The notes below the pieces were generated by a model. It saw only the letters and a list, made by a program, of their open reading frames with translations. It was not told the origin of the DNA and did no database searches. Of a stretch of DNA of 64,000 nt, positions 22,193 to 32,722 are shown one piece after another. Positions within the stretch are counted from its first letter, which is position 1. Each line of letters begins with the position of its first letter. A program made the position numbers and the translations under genes. The stretch comes from an uncultured Planctomycetales bacterium (GTDB lineage: Bacteria > Planctomycetota > Phycisphaerae > SM23-33 > FEN-1343). The stretch is taken from NCBI GenBank assembly GCA_964535025.1, contig CAZHRW010000149.1, positions 11,932-75,931 of the forward strand, given 5' to 3'.

Positions 22193-22268
22193 CCTTCCCC
22201 CAGTCCCGGTTCTGTGGTAAACTGGCGTGTGTTATCCGTTTAATGGCCAGGCACACGTGGAGGAGACC

Positions 22269-23552
22269 ATGGACAAGACACTCGCATCGCTGATCTTCGT
22301 GGCTGTCGGTTGTGCCCTGTGTGTCGCGCCCGGCGACGCGCTCGGCGCCGGCGAGCAACTGCTGAACCTGCCCCTCGACCGCCCGACCTTCCCGGTGCCG
22401 GCGGACATCGTCTGGCCCGAGGCCGTCGGCGAGCCGCACATCTGCCTGTGGTATGGCGACAAGTTCGCCGCGGTGAGCATCACCATCGACGACAACTGGA
22501 AGCCCGACCAGGCGTGGTGGATCGAGATGGCCGAGACCTATGAGTTCACGCCGACCTGGTTCATCATCGTTGGCGGCGTGGAAAACCAGAGCAACCCGAG
22601 CTTCTCGGGCGTCTGGTCCGATTACGTCGCCCTTCACGCCGCAGGCGGGAGCATCCAGTCGCACACGATGACGCACAACTGCTCCGACGACACCCGTCCG
22701 GACGCCGACGTGCGCTGGGAGTACGGCCAGTCGCAGGCACTCATCGACGCCAACGTCACCGACGGGCGGTGCCTGGCGATCGCCTACCCGTGCGGCGTGG
22801 GGCGGACCGACCTGGCCGCGGAGTACTTCATCGCCGGCCGCGGCGTGCACGGCACGCCCAACAAGCCCGGACGGATCAACTGGATGATGACCGACAGCTC
22901 CAGCGGGCGGATCGGGCCCGATTACGTCAACCCGATCCTCTACGGGACCTCGGGCATCGCCTGGCTGAACTCCGCCCAGTGGAAGCGCTCGTGGCTGTGC
23001 ACGCACTTCCACGGCGTCAACGACAAGGTCGCCGAGGAGGTCAATCTCGCCGCCATCGACGCGGCGAGGGACCTGATCTGGTGGGGCAGCTTCGTCGAGG
23101 TCGCCAAGTTCGGCCAGGAGCGCGACTCGGCGGAGATCGCCATGGTCGCCAACAACCAGACCCGCATTGCCTTCCAGATCACCGACCGGATGAATGACGG
23201 GATCTTCGACCACCCCCTGACGATCAAGCTCCGCCTGCCCGACGGGTGGGACGGCGCCGCCGCCGCCACGCAGGACGGCCAGGCCATCGGCTTCACGCTG
23301 ACGAGCCGGGGCGACTACGACTACATCCTCCTGGACGCCGTTCCCGATCGCGGCCTCGTCGAGATCACGCCCGTCGCGGCCTACCCCGGCGACGCCGACC
23401 GGGACGGCGACGTCGACCTCGACGACTTTGCTGCGCTCAAGACGAACTTCGGCACCGCCGCCGGCGCTGCGTGGGACCAGGGCGACTTCGACGGCGACGG
23501 CGACGTCGACCTCGACGACTTCGCCATCCTCAAGACGAACTTCGGCGGTTGA
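22269..23552 (+). CDS. Secreted polysaccharide deacetylase-family protein with C-terminal dockerin-like (DxDxDGxVDxxD) repeats
   Basis: Signal peptide MDKTLASLIFVAVGCALCVAPGDALGA. AVSITIDDNW NodB-like start. Two C-terminal DRDGDVDLDDFAALKTNFG and DGDGDVDLDDFAILKTNFG dockerin-type repeats. GGAGGAGA RBS. Confidence 0.75.
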   Translation: MDKTLASLIFVAVGCALCVAPGDALGAGEQLLNLPLDRPTFPVPADIVWPEAVGEPHICLWYGDKFAAVSITIDDNWKPDQAWWIEMAETYEFTPTWFIIVGGVENQSNPSFSGVWSDYVALHAAGGSIQSHTMTHNCSDDTRPDADVRWEYGQSQALIDANVTDGRCLAIAYPCGVGRTDLAAEYFIAGRGVHGTPNKPGRINWMMTDSSSGRIGPDYVNPILYGTSGIAWLNSAQWKRSWLCTHFHGVNDKVAEEVNLAAIDAARDLIWWGSFVEVAKFGQERDSAEIAMVANNQTRIAFQITDRMNDGIFDHPLTIKLRLPDGWDGAAAATQDGQAIGFTLTSRGDYDYILLDAVPDRGLVEITPVAAYPGDADRDGDVDLDDFAALKTNFGTAAGAAWDQGDFDGDGDVDLDDFAILKTNFGG

Positions 23553-23599: not shown

Positions 23600-24193
23600 C
23601 TACCGCCGTCGCACGATCGCCGCGCCCCCCAGCGCCAGAAGCGTGAACGTCACCGGTTCGGGGACGATGCTGACGAAGGCGTCGTCGAGGTAGCCGTCGT
23701 TATTGTAGCCGTCGTAGCGCTGTGCGGTGAAGGTATAGCGCAGCGCCGTGGTGCCGGCGGGCAGGGGCAACTCGCCGTCGCGGAAGACCCAGGTGTGGTT
23801 GCTGTAGAACCAGCCGAGATCGTCCGAGGCGAGGACGTCGCCGGCAGCGTCGAGGGCGGCCAGCTCGATCAGGCCGCTGTCGCGCTGCGTTTGCCAGCCG
23901 GCCTGCCAGCCGCCGAACGTGGCGGTGAGGTCGTCGGCAAGCGGCTCGTCGAACTCGATGAGCTGGAACGTCGTGGTCAACGCGAAGCCGTCGAAGCTGC
24001 CGATGAGGTAGTACTGGCCGCCGTGGGGCGGGGGATTCGTCTGGCGGACCGCGGCGCCGTCGGTCGTCCAGCCGTTCAGGCCGTCCTCGAAGCCGGCGTT
24101 GGTCAGCAGGTTCGTGTTGAAGACGATGTCGGCCGATGCCGGGACGGCCAGGGCCGCCAGGAGACCCAGACACAAGACATTGCGGATCATCAT
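23600..24193 (-). CDS. PEP-CTERM sorting-domain protein (secreted; putative carbohydrate-binding N-terminal domain)
   Basis: Signal peptide. C-terminus VPEPVTFTLLALGGAAIVRRR is a PEP motif, TM helix, then basic tail. AAGGAGGAA RBS. Confidence 0.75.
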   Translation of the reverse strand: MMIRNVLCLGLLAALAVPASADIVFNTNLLTNAGFEDGLNGWTTDGAAVRQTNPPPHGGQYYLIGSFDGFALTTTFQLIEFDEPLADDLTATFGGWQAGWQTQRDSGLIELAALDAAGDVLASDDLGWFYSNHTWVFRDGELPLPAGTTALRYTFTAQRYDGYNNDGYLDDAFVSIVPEPVTFTLLALGGAAIVRRR

Positions 24194-24263
24194 GATTCCT
24201 CCTTTGCCGCAATCCACTTAAGACACAAGCCTACACGAGGTTGTTCGAACTGTCAATCCGGCA

Positions 24264-27502: not shown

Positions 27503-27715
27503 GGTGCGCTCCGAAGTGTCAGGCGTCCTTGCATGCCTGATCCTGTCGGCGAGCAGGAGAGCAGTTGAGCAGGAGACCGCAGGTGAGCCGTTTGTGGCTT
27601 CCGTGTCATAACGTGCCTTCCATAGAGGGCGTGTCGTTCCTACTGTTCACCTGATCTCCTGTTCACCTGCTCTGTAGCGTTTTGGCTTTTGATTCTTGGA
27701 ATCAAAGCCAAAACG

Positions 27716-27976
27716 CTACGTGCCGGTCCAGAAGGGGTTGGCGAACAGCAGGATCATCGAGACGACGAAGCAGTAGATGGCCGTCGACTCGACCATCGCC
27801 AGGCCGACGAACAGCGTCCGCGTGATCCGCCCGGCTTCGTCGGGCTGCTGGGCGATGGCCCGCAGCGCCTCGGCCAGGCCCCGCCCCTCGCCGAGGGCCG
27901 GGCCGATCGAGCCGATGCCGATCGTGATCCCGGCGGTGAAGATCGATACCATGGCGATCAGTGATTGTGGATCCAT
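27716..27976 (-). CDS. atpE: ATP synthase c subunit carrying the Na+-binding ligand set
   Basis: SIGPALGEG...AQQPDE...VESTAIY...ANPF aligns to the I. tartaricus c subunit. Gln in helix 1 and Glu-Ser-Thr / Tyr in helix 2 are all present. Confidence 0.9.
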   Translation of the reverse strand: MDPQSLIAMVSIFTAGITIGIGSIGPALGEGRGLAEALRAIAQQPDEAGRITRTLFVGLAMVESTAIYCFVVSMILLFANPFWTGT

Positions 27977-29031: not shown

Positions 29032-29343
29032 CTAGCGTCCTTCCGACTCGCGTTTGACCCAGTACCACGCCGTCAGGCAGCCGACGATCACGCCCATCCC
29101 CAGCCCCGTGAGCGTCCAGGAGATCCGTCCGCCCAGTTGCCGGTCGAGCCAGGCGCCGATCAGGGCGCCGACGACCGTGGGGATCGCCACCGACCAGCCG
29201 GCGACGCCCATCATGCCCAGCCAGAACCAGACGGAGCGATCGTCCTCCCGCCGGGCGCGGACCTTGCGCTGCTCCTTGTGCGTGACCGCGTCGCCGAAGC
29301 GGTTGTCGTCGCGTCCGTCGGTTGGCGACTGTCTGTCATCCAC
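29032..29343 (-). CDS. atpQ: N-ATPase AtpQ (AtpI/AtpZ-like small membrane protein)
   Basis: 103 aa, two or three TM helices; sits between atpC and atpR. Confidence 0.6.
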   Translation of the reverse strand: MDDRQSPTDGRDDNRFGDAVTHKEQRKVRARREDDRSVWFWLGMMGVAGWSVAIPTVVGALIGAWLDRQLGGRISWTLTGLGMGVIVGCLTAWYWVKRESEGR

Positions 29344-29722
29344 GGTGTTCCAGCTCGATAAAGCGTCGGATGAAGTCGGCCTGCATCTTCTCCGACGCGG
29401 CGATCGCCTGCTGCTGATGCTCGCTGAGGCGTCGGAAGTCCTCCTCGGCCGCCTCCCGCAGCCTGCCCAGGGCCCCGCGGACCGCCCGCGGGGTCGACAC
29501 CCGCACGTCGCCGCCGCACTTGACCAGCACGCCGCCGTCGATCGCCAGGAACGTCTCGTCCCCGTCGGCCGTGCGGAAGCTCAACAGCCCCGGCCCCAGC
29601 GCCGACACCAGGTCCACGTGCCGCTCCAGCAGGGTGAACGACCCCTCGGCGCCGTCGGCCGTCACGGCGGCGACGTCCTGGTCGACCTCGACACGCGTCG
29701 GCAGCAGGACCTGAAGATGCAT
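29336..29722 (-). CDS. atpC: ATP synthase epsilon subunit
   Basis: MHLQVLLPTRVEVDQDVAAVTA... is the epsilon beta-sandwich N-terminus, followed by a C-terminal helical hairpin. Confidence 0.85.
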   Translation of the reverse strand: MHLQVLLPTRVEVDQDVAAVTADGAEGSFTLLERHVDLVSALGPGLLSFRTADGDETFLAIDGGVLVKCGGDVRVSTPRAVRGALGRLREAAEEDFRRLSEHQQQAIAASEKMQADFIRRFIELEHRG

Positions 29723-29748
29723 GGCTTCTCGCTTGCCGGGCTTCGGGG

Positions 29749-29925
29749 CCCGGCTAAATTCTGTCGCCCCTTTGGGGCTTTGTGCGTAAACGGCGCTCCT
29801 GTCCGGGGACTGGCGCCCCCGGCTAAACTCTGTTGCCCCTTTCGGGGCTTTGTGCGTAAACGGCGCTCCTGTCCGGGGGCTGGCGCCCCCGGCTAAACTC
29901 TGTCGCCCCTTTGGGGCTTTGTCCC
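29749..29925. repeat. 70-bp tandem repeat (about 2.5 copies) inside the 388-bp atpD-atpC spacer; each unit contains CCGGGG(G/A)CTGGCGCCCCCGG
   Basis: Units begin at 29749, 29819 and 29889 (period 70, over 90% identical). Followed at 29956-29975 by the inverted partner CCGGGGGCGCCAGCCCCCGG. Extra direct repeats CAGCCCCGGAGGGGCGG lie at about 29930 and about 29998. Confidence 0.85.
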
Positions 29926-30109
29926 CGTCAGCCCCGGAGGGGCGGCGGAATTTTGCCGGGGGCGCCAGCCCCCGGAAAACGGCTTACGAACACGAGCCAG
30001 CCCCGGAGGGGCGGCATACGTTCCAAGGGGGCGTCAGCCCCCGCCCATCGTCTCCTTTCGTCGCCGCACGCTTGCGTCAAGGGCGGCCCGGGCGCGCGCG
30101 CCGGCTGAA

Positions 30110-31600
<1,491 letters not shown>

Positions 31601-31996
31601 TCAGGCTGGCCGCCGGGGCGGCTTGGCGCCCGGGGCGTGCTCGCGGCAGAACCGCGACCAGGGCTGGGCGGTCAGCCGCTGGAGGTCGATCGCCTTGCCG
31701 CACGTCTCGCAGCGGCCGTACGTCCCGTCTTCCATCCGCCGCAGGGCCTCGTCGATCTCGTAGACCAGGTCCCGCTCGATCTGGGCGAGCTGCTTGGCGG
31801 TGGCCCGCCCGTGCTCGTCGGTGCCCTCGTCGGCCGGGTGGGTCGGCAGGCGGGTGTGCATGTCGCCGCCGCCGGCGCTCCAGCCGGGCTGGTCGTCGTC
31901 GACCTGGCGAAAATCGCCGGTGATCTCGCGGCGGTGTTGCAGCAGCGCCTCGCGCAGCGTCCCGAGCTGCTTGCGATTCAATGGCGTCCGACGCAT
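31601..31996 (-). CDS. DksA/TraR family C4-type zinc-finger protein
   Basis: C-terminal CETCGKAIDLQRLTAQPWSRFC four-Cys finger. GAGGAG RBS before the chosen ATG. Confidence 0.7.
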   Translation of the reverse strand: MRRTPLNRKQLGTLREALLQHRREITGDFRQVDDDQPGWSAGGGDMHTRLPTHPADEGTDEHGRATAKQLAQIERDLVYEIDEALRRMEDGTYGRCETCGKAIDLQRLTAQPWSRFCREHAPGAKPPRRPA

Positions 31997-32287
31997 GGGT
32001 CGCTCCTCGCGCGGCCGGCGGCGCCCCGAGGGCATCCCCGCCGCCGCGTCACAGGGAAGGGTATGCTACTTGCCACCTGAATGCTTTTCAAACGTCTCTT
32101 TCGCTTAGGACCACGGCACCTTTCCCGCCATGATCCACGCGCCTTCCTCGCCGGCCGCCGCCGCTAACCCATCGTTCGGGTTCGATCCGGTCGCGGGCCA
32201 TAGAATTCAAAGGACGGCATGGGCACAAGGCGCGTCGGCTGCCGCCCGGCGGCAGCGGCGGCCGCGACCAGCGACAGGGAGCGAACG

Positions 32288-32722
32288 ATGAGCCAGTTAC
32301 GCACATTGGGCTTCTTCGAAGCGGTGATCCAGACGACCCAGGAATGGATGGTCGAGCTGACCGAGCTGACCGGCCGCGCCGACGAACACAAGGCCTGGCA
32401 GATGCTCCGGGCCGTGCTGCACGTCCTGCGGGACCGGATGACCGTCGCCCACAGCGCCCACCTCAGCGCGCAACTGCCGACGATCATCCGGGGCCTGTAC
32501 TTCGAGGGCTGGCGGCCGGCCGAGCAGCCGCTCCGCCTGCGCACCCGCGCCGAGTTCATCACGGCGGTCAGCGACGAGTTGTCCGGCCACCCGGAGATCG
32601 ACCCCAACCAGGCCGTCGCCTGCGTCTTCCGGCTCCTGGCCCACCGCATCACCGGCGGCGAGCTGGACAAGATCAAGCAGTCGCTCCAGCCGGAGCTGCG
32701 GGCGATGTGGCCGACGGCGTGA
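32288..32722 (+). CDS. DUF2267 domain protein
   Basis: C-terminal GELDKIKQSLQPELRAMWP pattern typical of DUF2267. GGGAG RBS. Confidence 0.6.
   Translation: MSQLRTLGFFEAVIQTTQEWMVELTELTGRADEHKAWQMLRAVLHVLRDRMTVAHSAHLSAQLPTIIRGLYFEGWRPAEQPLRLRTRAEFITAVSDELSGHPEIDPNQAVACVFRLLAHRITGGELDKIKQSLQPELRAMWPTA

Follow-up and report, generated by a model that had tools for sequence, protein, structure and literature searches.

Palindromic repeats of the Acido-Lenti-1 type in the atpD-atpC spacer of a planctomycete N-ATPase operon: a probable REP-like insertion

Repeat systems that resemble the locus described here include the REP, BIME and REPIN-RAYT elements of Proteobacteria (PMC3116915, PMC3337134, PMC6006769) and the IS200/IS605 insertion sequences, whose ends are asymmetric and lie on the same strand (PMC6006769). 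The TnpA-Y1 proteins of subclass 1.2 occur mainly in Cyanobacteria and Bacteroidetes and are "generally without" terminal secondary structures (PMC6006769). Within operons of E. coli, REP325 of yjdMN is described as an attenuator and upstream stabiliser (bioRxiv 10.64898/2026.03.23.713779), and operon stoichiometry is reshaped by protective 3′ structures (PMC5927463). The motif Acido-Lenti-1 (RF01687) is filed in Rfam under the type "Gene; sRNA" and was rated "RNA? y, cis-reg n", with covariation, by Weinberg et al. 2010 (PMC2864571); in both, it counts as a likely trans-acting sRNA, of unknown function, found in Acidobacteria and Lentisphaerae.

The stretch of DNA analysed, referred to as the window, comprises 64,000 nt from an uncultured Planctomycetales bacterium (assembly GCA_964535025.1, contig CAZHRW010000149.1, positions 11,932-75,931, forward strand). 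On its minus strand lies an operon of the order atpD-C-Q-R-B-E-F-A-G, all nine genes of which are intact in sequence, and the presence of AtpR (PF12966) and ATPase_gene1/AtpQ (PF09527) identifies it as an N-ATPase operon. Two proteins of Planctomycetota MAGs, P0121 and P0123, share 92% and 90% identity, respectively, with the atpD product, and the atpC protein is identical to those encoded on contigs L203 and L204. Between the two genes a spacer does exist, as the preliminary description had stated, with a length of 387 nt and not 388. The features of this region are as follows; R1 denotes a covariance model built here.

29336..29722, minus strand: atpC, epsilon subunit (128 aa), Pfam PF02823, intact, transcriptionally downstream of the spacer
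29723..30109, minus strand: atpD-atpC spacer, 387 nt, the entire site of the finding
29723..29735, minus strand: last ~13 nt ahead of the atpC ATG, mRNA sense GCAAGCGAGAAGCC; homology to the related loci L115, L205 and L206 resumes here
29736..29779, plus strand (antisense to the mRNA): repeat unit U1, RF01687 36.5 bits, R1 43.7 bits
29803..29849, plus strand (antisense to the mRNA): repeat unit U2, RF01687 32.1 bits, R1 56.7 bits
29873..29918, plus strand (antisense to the mRNA): repeat unit U3, RF01687 51.5 bits, R1 69.8 bits, top family match
29930..29975, minus strand (sense to the mRNA): repeat unit U4, RF01687 41.4 bits, R1 63.7 bits
29999..30044, minus strand (sense to the mRNA): repeat unit U5, RF01687 21.5 bits, R1 51.0 bits
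30045..30109, minus strand: non-repeat 65-nt segment directly past the atpD stop, with the GC palindrome GCCGGCGCGCGCGCCCGGGC and AAGGAG...ATG
30110..31591, minus strand: atpD, N-ATPase beta subunit (493 aa), Pfam PF00006, PF02874 and PF22919, transcriptionally upstream of the spacer

The repeat block is built from five two-hairpin units of about 46 nt at a period of about 70 nt, three on the plus strand (U1-U3) and two on the minus strand (U4-U5). The first hairpin of U1 is the variant CCGGGC-TTCGGG-GCCCGG. U1 and U2 are each trailed by an identical 23-nt linker, TTGTGCGTAAACGGCGCTCCTGT, and the repeat frame of U2 (29837-29906) is 94% identical to the frame before it (29767-29836). A 70-bp tandem repeat of about 2.5 copies and more than 90% identity, noticed beforehand from the sequence, was recovered by Tandem Repeats Finder at 29749-29922 (period 70, 2.5 copies, 94% matches, score 318). 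The string CCGGGGRCTGGCGCCCCCGG, which had been ascribed to every unit, occurs in U2 (at 29803) and U3 (at 29873) and is missing from U1 with its variant hairpin; its exact reverse complement was found downstream, as had been claimed, at 29956-29975, and so were both copies of the direct repeat CAGCCCCGGAGGGGCGG, at 29929 and 29998. Counted with its reverse complement, CCGGGGRCTGGCGCCCCCGG has three matches against 0.14 expected, and none of 100 shuffles reached this number. U3 and U4 together form a central long hairpin with arms at 29872-29918 and 29930-29976, 87% complementary and 11 nt apart. In agreement with the earlier suggestion that the transcript folds into very stable stems, a free energy of -231.1 kcal/mol is predicted for the mRNA strand of the spacer (z -7.5 against shuffles), and the plus strand is likewise predicted to fold beyond its shuffles (-242.7 kcal/mol, z -7.9).

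With filters off, R1 detected exactly five units in the 64-kb window, all in the spacer, and no further copy was found there by strict motif searches, unfiltered nhmmer, an Rfam gathering scan or R1. A CRISPR array was considered for the block and rejected, since the linkers also repeat, two units are inverted, and the CRISPR-DR29 model reaches 15.7 bits where 39 is the gathering score. The 65-nt segment past the atpD stop has no match to the repeat-unit models; BLAST of this segment and of the 23-nt linker against all repeat-bearing loci gave matches at chance level only. Judging from the alignment with the relatives, the last 13 nt ahead of atpC are a remnant of the ancestral atpD 3′ end together with a weak ribosome-binding region.

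Comparison with related operons suggests how the spacer arose. At 73 related N-ATPase loci the distance between atpD and atpC ranges from -11 to +84 nt, and in 48 of them the genes overlap by 11 nt. In two relatives with full synteny, L205 (AtpD 92% identical) and L206 (90%), the two genes are 1 and 2 nt apart, respectively, with no unit between them, and the repeat unit is absent throughout 80 related loci with a total of 558 kb. In the alignment with L115, L205 and L206 only the atpC-side boundary of the block is definable; there is no definable clean left boundary. Nor could a target-site duplication be recognised, given how far the relatives have diverged in their atpD tails. On these comparisons, the repeat block is very probably a recent insertion into a normally gapless atpD-atpC junction. 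The 90% relative belongs to MAG JAAYZK01, other contigs of which (L078, L113) bear unit arrays that are among the closest to those of the window, and from this relative we infer that the unit is dispersed in the window's own organism as well.

Assigned by model score and architecture, the spacer units are members of the Rfam family RF01687, Acido-Lenti-1: U3 and U4 pass its gathering score of 37, and U1, U2 and U5 score below it. The two GC hairpins of a unit have stems of 8 bp, closed by a 4-nt loop, and of 5 bp; between them lie the CTA tag, which is nearly invariant, and some 8 nt of variable sequence. This layout fits the RF01687 model with its 8-bp and 5-bp hairpins (the latter with a 3-4-nt loop) and linker of about 12 nt. 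The stems of the family covary, with double-sided changes in 12 of 13 pairs and 62 cells as compared to 3.5 in shuffles; none of 500 shuffles equalled the 12 pairs, and slid controls remained near zero. The CTA past the first hairpin reads NTAG on the opposite strand, where the first base varied among 150 units (GTAG 36, ATAG 38, TTAG 25, CTAG 8).

The two-hairpin signature was found at more than 113 unrelated loci among the matches listed, in about 45 genomes, mainly of Planctomycetota, although the sampled loci are skewed to one sequence variant because the search pattern held hairpin 1 constant. The sampled repeat loci come from genomes other than the source of the window. Among the matches listed, at least 20 loci belong to Phycisphaerales WB-IL-13 and at least 13 to a Pirellulales MAG, and the family extends to Bacteroidota, Acidobacteriota and Armatimonadota. 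In total, 178 units fall into 126 clusters, namely 87 singles, 31 "-+" doublets with centres of about 100 nt, and a few arrays. The doublets are predicted to fold as hairpins of about 200 nt with -150 to -190 kcal/mol. Most clusters are intergenic; in 95 of 106, any overlap with a called gene stays within 20 nt. The arrangement "+++--" of the window, with inverted units 11 nt apart, is absent among the 126 clusters elsewhere, where the inverted pairs are of the "-+" type with their wider centres.

In these other genomes the units are associated with a transposase gene. Among the Pfam families of 52 genes neighbouring repeats, Y1_Tnp ranks first. Units lie on both sides of a Y1 gene, in inverted orientation, at L029, L077 and L059; in the repeat-side search L100 was also counted among the loci with bracketing units, and L041 and L086 have a unit on the visible side of the gene. 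Reciprocally, when loci were chosen from the protein side, adjoining units were present at all eight Y1 loci, five of which show the order (-) unit, gene, (+) unit at distances of 57-98 nt and 24-79 nt. The 64-kb window itself contains no Y1 gene. The Y1 proteins match PF01797 (E 8.5e-28), their family alignment conserves DH.H, WQ..Y and Y...Q..HH, and clustering at 90% identity yields more than 2,600 homologues for the clade. By motif alone, this clade fits subclass 1.2 of the TnpA-Y1 proteins.

The spacer is in all likelihood a REP/BIME-like cluster, i.e. a palindromic repeat of a dispersed, intergenic family that is present five times and was inserted at this junction, and no operon-specific device. 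This reading rests on the dispersed units, the gapless junctions of the relatives and the association with Y1 transposases. The preliminary description had named a REP- or MITE-like insertion as its alternative, and this is the alternative we now prefer, the units being RF01687 members that are REP/REPIN-like and flank Y1 transposase genes in other genomes. Its first suggestion, an RNA structure selected to partition the operon, is at odds with the absence of the block from all 73 related junctions, those of the 92% and 90% relatives included. An operon-specific role was to be abandoned if the unit occurred at many unrelated loci; such dispersal is found for the 46-nt core, in other genomes. 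None of the 80 related loci holds a unit. As far as sequence can tell, the units behave like REP/REPIN elements in Planctomycetota and several other phyla, where they occur as singles, inverted doublets and arrays, and the doublets of about 200 nt look like gene-less REPIN-like derivatives. On balance, we lean towards the wider view that Acido-Lenti-1 is no RNA gene. It would instead be paired, as a repeat of the REP/REPIN type, with a widespread clade of small Y1 HUH transposases that had no partner before, and REPIN-RAYT-like systems would reach beyond Proteobacteria into Planctomycetota, Bacteroidota, Acidobacteriota and other groups.

The units could also belong to an ordinary selfish insertion sequence of the IS200/IS605 type with MITE-like (PATE-like) derivatives, and not to a domesticated REP/RAYT system, in which case the spacer would hold decayed MITE copies. 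The Y1 proteins pass the NCBIfam model of the IS200/IS605 TnpA (NF033573, cutoff 55) with 78.8, 71.9 and 55.3 bits, and fail the RayT model (NF047646, cutoff 80) with 34.9 bits, 19.5 bits or no hit. Their neighbours in the PDB are 2fyx, 2xm3, 2ec2 and 2a6m, with ISDra2, IS608 and Sulfolobus TnpA as the nearest solved structures, and the solved E. coli REP transposase is absent among these matches. The occurrence of the family across phyla, including Bacteroidota, Acidobacteriota and Armatimonadota, suggests horizontal spread, and MAG CAZNFA01 carries two diverged Y1 genes (L029 and L196). However, one motif, in inverted copies, forms both ends, in the manner of REPtrons and TIRtrons, whereas the ends of IS200/IS605 elements are asymmetric and on one strand (PMC6006769). 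Gene-less units far outnumber genes, with one Y1 gene locus found in WB-IL-13 next to its 20 or more repeat loci; most protein clusters occur on one or two contigs, and Y...Q..HH fits the low-copy, non-IS subclass 1.2 (PMC6006769). We regard this reading as rather unlikely. Independently of this question, many homologues of the Y1 proteins are called "RayT" by JGI despite their failure in NF047646.

A cis-regulatory RNA specific to this operon and selected to partition the N-ATPase transcript through processing, attenuation or differential stability would account for the predicted stability of the spacer RNA (-231 kcal/mol, z -7.5) and for its position between the gene of a three-copy subunit and that of a one-copy subunit. 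Furthermore, a 10-nt segment over the atpC ribosome-binding region is fully open with a predicted probability of 8e-7, compared with 2e-5 to 5e-3 at four other starts of the operon, and REPs inside operons can favour expression of the upstream gene (bioRxiv 10.64898/2026.03.23.713779). Against such a role stand the missing block at the related junctions and the many unrelated loci with the unit among the matches listed. The units in the spacer have both orientations, so that no single RNA motif is in use, and the alpha subunit, likewise present in three copies, is encoded downstream and would be penalised. No promoter consensus was found in the spacer, terminator-like sites in 29200-32400 number 0 against 1.1 expected, and no unit is followed by a T-run at its 3′ side on the mRNA strand; an intrinsic terminator or attenuator, in which a U-run on the transcribed strand would come after a GC-rich hairpin, was rejected for the spacer. 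A selected regulator of this kind is very unlikely.

Highly improbable, too, is the reading of the units as trans-acting sRNA genes, the class given to them by Rfam and Weinberg et al. 2010, five of which would be clustered here by chance. The Rfam type, the published rating and the covariation confirmed here speak for it. However, no gene-context preference as expected of a terminator or leader role was seen among the clusters, whose junction types (42/9/9) mirror the background (259/56/44) and whose single units are distributed over the strands without strong bias (18 vs 10). Stem pairs are nearly all Watson-Crick (1683, besides 3 G.T and 22 A.C), an uncommon pattern for RNA under selection, and the family stems show no excess of G.U over A.C, so that this asymmetry test lends no support to an RNA-specific role. 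Moreover, the spacer lacks any promoter or terminator found by our searches, its copies lie within an operon in both orientations, and elsewhere units build long DNA palindromes and bracket the Y1 gene in inverted orientation. An assembly artefact, whether from a chimeric join or from a repeat that was collapsed or expanded, has scarcely any probability: assemblies do break at repeats, the Logan contig L204 stops within the block and the 70-nt units may have been miscounted, but the identical 387-nt spacer is present in the JGI metagenome contig L114, L204 agrees with the window at every base over U1, the linker and the junction to atpC, and atpD and atpC are both intact and syntenic with the relatives.

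For the preferred reading, the inserted REP/BIME-like cluster, the following course of events can be proposed. One or more units would have been placed at the atpD/atpC junction by a Y1 transposase acting on hairpins of single-stranded DNA, presumably after the split from the relatives with 90-92% AtpD identity. Local amplification by tandem duplication may have followed, the two leftmost 70-nt frames being 94% identical. A translationally coupled junction of 1-2 nt would thus have turned into a gap of 387 nt, the mRNA would have acquired a stem-loop complex of about -230 kcal/mol, and atpC would have been uncoupled from atpD. By analogy with the E. coli REPs, the atpD segment would gain protection from 3′-exonucleases, and/or read-through into and translation of atpC and the later genes would be lowered. 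Such an effect on the expression of beta relative to the downstream genes is plausible as a by-product of the repeats.

If this holds, the insertion at the beta-epsilon junction is a natural experiment on repeats that retune operon stoichiometry, and genomes that have the block can be compared with those that lack it, 90-92% identical in AtpD, to gauge the effect of such a cluster on coupled genes. An eye-catching structure inside an operon would be a recent repeat insertion and no conserved regulator, and annotation of the spacer as five sRNA genes or as a control element of the N-ATPase is unwarranted. The association also links a 15-year-old orphan Rfam motif to a clade of Y1 transposases and points to a biology of the REP/REPIN kind in Planctomycetota and other phyla, for which there are few records of it. 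Consequences arise for Rfam annotation, for repeat masking and for MAG assembly, the last because contigs break at the units.

Compared with RF01687 as described, the window units share the 46-nt two-hairpin architecture, the loop, the linker and the covarying stems. In contrast, they occur in Planctomycetota and have GGGGGC stems, whereas the Rfam seed has stems of the UAGCGC type, and they resemble a dispersed DNA palindrome associated with a transposase and not an sRNA. With IS200/IS605 elements the system has in common a Y1 HUH transposase with HuH and catalytic tyrosine motifs; it differs by its inverted ends of one motif and by the rarity of genes relative to repeats. Subclass 1.2 (Quentin et al. 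2018, PMC6006769) shares Y...Q..HH, the conserved C-terminal domain, the size of about 150 aa and the low copy number, but clear hairpin units flank the Y1 genes here. Class 3 of the same survey was rejected, its CnGA foot and its NHVH and W[TA] motifs being a misfit. As in the TIRtron/TIRYT elements (Di Nocera et al. 2013, PMC3733652), a tyrosine-transposase gene lies between inverted repeats that form a repeat family. The TIR motif GGGGWSAS does not fit the unit flanks, and the strings CCGGGGGC and GCCCCCGG are absent from the supplements of that study, its consensus-sequence figure lying outside this comparison; the repeat family may equal one of its R. baltica families. Of the two marks of a MITE, terminal inverted repeats and a target-site duplication, the ~200-nt doublets show inverted ends.

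The likeness to the REP/BIME/REPIN-RAYT systems of Proteobacteria includes a short palindrome, rich in GC, whose stem foot adjoins an unpaired tag, clusters, sites within operons and, in other genomes, numerous intergenic copies, doublets of inverted units that fold into long hairpins, and a REPtron-like layout with a low-copy Y1 HUH gene between inverted repeats. Differences concern the tag, a conserved GTAG (GT[AG]G) in those systems, which is NTAG here and GTAG in only about a quarter of the copies, the second small hairpin of every unit, the doublet centres of about 100 nt, and the Y1 transposase, which is IS200-like and fails the RayT model. Finally, the REPs within operons of E. coli (the malEFG model, PMC5927463; REP325 in yjdMN, bioRxiv 10.64898/2026.03.23.713779) likewise form a stable palindromic cluster between co-transcribed genes. 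Host, RNases and repeat family differ from those of the spacer, which is known from sequence alone, and the cluster described here would also have broken a translationally coupled junction.

The nine atp genes of the region are all intact and lie on the minus strand in the gene order of N-ATPases. Acido-Lenti-1 units make the 387-nt spacer between atpD and atpC a REP/BIME-like cluster, recently inserted in a normally gapless junction. The genes, assigned by Pfam families, and the spacer are:

30110-31591, minus strand, atpD (beta), Pfam
29723-30109, atpD-atpC spacer, 387 nt
29336-29722, minus strand, atpC (epsilon), Pfam
29032-29343, minus strand, atpQ, PF09527
28729-29019, minus strand, atpR, PF12966
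downstream of atpR, minus strand, atpB, atpE, atpF, atpA and atpG in this order, Pfam

The preliminary description had reported a 388-bp spacer with 2.5 copies of a 70-bp unit and one reverse complement. Tandem-repeat, inverted-repeat and folding analyses bore out the repeat structure, the long spacer and the 70-nt period (2.5 copies, 94% matches at 29749-29922, Tandem Repeats Finder). The length is corrected to 387 nt and the count to five two-hairpin units, the first of which (U1) has a variant hairpin. Repeat searches placed three units (U1-U3) on the plus strand, antisense to the atp mRNA, with start-to-start spacings of 69 and 70 nt, and two (U4-U5) in the opposite, sense orientation, 69 nt apart. 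The central inverted arms comprise 47 nt each, are 87% complementary and enclose an 11-nt gap. One 20-mer hairpin is present three times versus 0.14 expected, and the proposed RNA folding found both strands far more stable than shuffled controls (z of -7.5 and -7.9). The 65 nt from the atpD stop codon to the nearest unit (30045-30109) have no match in the repeat family or in the relatives; they carry a GC palindrome (GCCGGCGCGCGCGCCCGGGC) as well as AAGGAG, which resembles a strong Shine-Dalgarno sequence and precedes an ATG with a four-codon frame. A Logan contig of SRR1179191 (L204, 1-81), assembled independently, has an identical atpC and extends 81 nt upstream of it, where it breaks off within U1 and its linker. 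The repeat interrupts short-read assemblies, and junctions of this kind may therefore be systematically missing from MAGs.

In an Rfam scan of the spacer, all five units matched RF01687, the Acido-Lenti-1 RNA, a 46-nt motif of two hairpins, with 51.5, 41.4, 36.5, 32.1 and 21.5 bits (gathering score 37 bits). At the gathering threshold, RF01687 matches in the whole 64-kb window are confined to these units. With filters off, nhmmer detected no further unit in the window, and the next best match of our own covariance model of the unit reached only 14 bits. For Acido-Lenti-1, listed from Acidobacteria and Lentisphaerae, Weinberg et al. (2010, PMC2864571) considered an RNA without a cis-regulatory role probable, and a 2026 preprint still described it as little understood. 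Judged from the sequence, a Planctomycetota host is indicated by 69% GC, the AtpD relatives and two genes neighbouring the operon:

22227-23552, plus strand, protein with dockerin-like DxDGDVDLDDF repeats
23600-24217, minus strand, PEP-CTERM protein

For the proposed comparison of atpD-atpC spacers, eighty AtpD relatives were taken from metagenomes, 73 of which carry both genes. Their stop-to-start distances span -11 to +84 nt, versus 387 nt here (-11 nt at 48 loci, -4 at nine, -1 at four, +1 at two, +7 to +27 at nine and +84 at one), and no unit was found in the 80 loci (558 kb). Protein searches yielded two closer relatives, L205 (92% AtpD identity, 1-nt gap), which shares the neighbours MarC, DUF2267 and a DksA-like gene with the window, and L206 (90%, 2-nt gap); neither contains a unit in its 10 kb. 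L206 is a contig of the MAG JAAYZK01, other contigs of which (L078, L113) carry the repeat, arrays included, with units among the best matches to U3, U4 and U5. Since L205 and L206 are unit-free and contigs of JAAYZK01 carry the repeat, the close lineage of the window hosts the family, with the junction empty until recently, and we regard the repeat block as a recent insertion. Similarity to the relatives sets in again about 12 nt ahead of the atpC start codon; the other boundary and a target duplication were not definable in this alignment because of variable atpD tails. The two leftmost 70-nt frames are 94% identical, which points to a local tandem duplication after arrival.

The preliminary description had preferred an operon-specific RNA partitioning the operon, and had held that occurrence of the unit at many unrelated loci would speak against such a role. 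The two-hairpin signature matched at least 113 stretches in a collection of species-representative genomes; the unit is thus not specific to the N-ATPase operon. With the unit dispersed elsewhere and related junctions unit-free, the partitioning role is unsupported, and the REP/MITE-like insertion named as its alternative proved right. The matches listed come from at least about 45 genomes, mainly Phycisphaerae, Pirellulales, Planctomycetales and Gemmatales, besides Bacteroidales, Acidobacteriota, Armatimonadota, Latescibacterota and Lentisphaeria/Victivallales. Loci number at least 20 in Phycisphaerales WB-IL-13, at least 13 in a Pirellulales MAG and at least nine in a Muribaculaceae MAG. An nhmmer census among the matches listed sorted 178 units into 126 clusters, of which 87 are singles, 31 are inverted '-+' doublets and a few are long arrays. 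The doublets, which fold to near-perfect hairpins of about 200 nt (-150 to -190 kcal/mol), have centres of about 100 nt, in contrast to the '+++--' cluster of the window with its 11-nt centre. One array (L198, 396-1953), far larger than the window's cluster, comprises at least 14 units in a single orientation that recur about every 108 nt; it immediately precedes a Y1_Tnp gene, downstream of which no unit lies. At seven loci from Muribaculaceae and Porphyromonadaceae MAGs (L003, L023, L047, L056, L066, L104, L108) the GC-rich unit forms part of a longer element that is conserved together with its flanks and is bounded by inverted ends (TACAGGGC ... GCCCTACAG), which suggests a larger MITE-like carrier in this lower-GC Bacteroidales host.

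Genes around the units were called by a crude GC3-based method that had been validated on the atp operon; 95 of 106 clusters overlap a called gene by no more than 20 nt. Their junctions (42 tandem, 9 divergent, 9 convergent) mirror the background proportions (259/56/44), and single units in tandem junctions lie on the same strand in 18 cases versus 10 on the opposite one. Terminators, leaders or sRNA genes driven by a promoter would not be expected to show such junction types, strand split and intergenic placement.

Neither an intrinsic terminator nor a sigma-70-like promoter was found in or near the spacer, and with all nine genes intact the block is likely to be co-transcribed with the genes on both sides. 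The insertion would have abolished the 1-2-nt coupling of atpD and atpC. The ribosome-binding region that remained for atpC is a weak GAGAAG, with a predicted fully-open probability of 8e-7 versus 2e-5 to 5e-3 at four other starts. By analogy with E. coli, the block would be expected to raise the level of atpD message over that of atpC and the following genes. There, REP325 within yjdMN both dampens read-through and makes the upstream message more stable (bioRxiv 10.64898/2026.03.23.713779), and protective 3' structures reshape operon stoichiometry (PMC5927463). We see no sign that this predicted effect is under selection; a selected boost of beta is at odds with alpha, which is required in equal amount, yet encoded downstream of the block. 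Further features of the operon are:

32091..32063, minus strand, sole sigma-70-like promoter match of the region, upstream of the DksA-like gene
31601-32035, minus strand, DksA/TraR-type zinc-finger gene (PF01258), 9 nt upstream of atpD
27503-27715, atpE-atpF spacer, 213 nt
27676-27717, minus strand, perfect 19-bp AT-rich hairpin, AGCGTTTTGGCTTTGATTC-CAA-GAATCAAAGCCAAAACGCT

The DksA/TraR-type gene is syntenic in L205, L206 and L114, a metagenome contig with the identical atpD-atpC spacer, and may be the first gene of the operon. The hairpin begins within the atpE stop codon, is followed by no U-run and could stabilise the message of the c subunit, needed in many copies; the atpE-atpF spacer measures 213 nt in L114, 195 nt in L205 and only 13 nt in L206.

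Among 52 complete genes within 400 nt of unit clusters, the top Pfam family was Y1_Tnp (PF01797) with three members, a tally extended by tblastn to six loci in six MAGs and one degraded copy; the 64-kb window gave no tblastn match. The Y1 gene lies between a (-) and a (+) unit at L029, L077 and L059 and has one doublet on either side at L100. As this association was ascertained from the repeat, a reciprocal test was run from the protein side. The L029 protein retrieved 2,645 homologues at E <= 1e-10, most of 150 aa and on one or two contigs, named 'RayT' in many JGI entries and 'IS200/IS605 family transposase' by NCBI. Units adjoin the Y1 gene at all of eight homologue loci picked solely for long contigs, five of them, including one from WB-IL-13, with a (-) unit 57-98 nt upstream and a (+) unit 24-79 nt downstream. 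The proteins conserve DH.H, WQ..Y and Y...Q..HH, the last being the signature of the low-copy, non-IS subclass 1.2 (Quentin et al. 2018, PMC6006769). NCBIfam classifies them as IS200/IS605 TnpA (55-79 bits), they do not pass its RayT model (at most 35 bits, cutoff 80), and the nearest solved structures are the TnpA of ISDra2, IS608 and Sulfolobus. The family probably spreads via the unit-bracketed Y1 transposase, whose action on the units we infer from this arrangement.

The stems covary strongly, with double-sided changes in 12 of 13 pairs (62 cells versus 3.5 in shuffles), and are almost purely Watson-Crick (1683 pairs, with 3 G.T and 22 A.C), which fits a hairpin recognised as DNA no less than one acting as RNA. 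By their shared inverted geometry, the doublets of about 200 nt correspond to the ends of the Y1 gene without the gene, the same relation as that of REPINs to REPtrons. Hairpin 1 is followed by a CTA that hardly varies; on the other strand it reads NTAG, with GTAG in 36 of 150 units, which is reminiscent of the GTAG at the foot of classical REPs.
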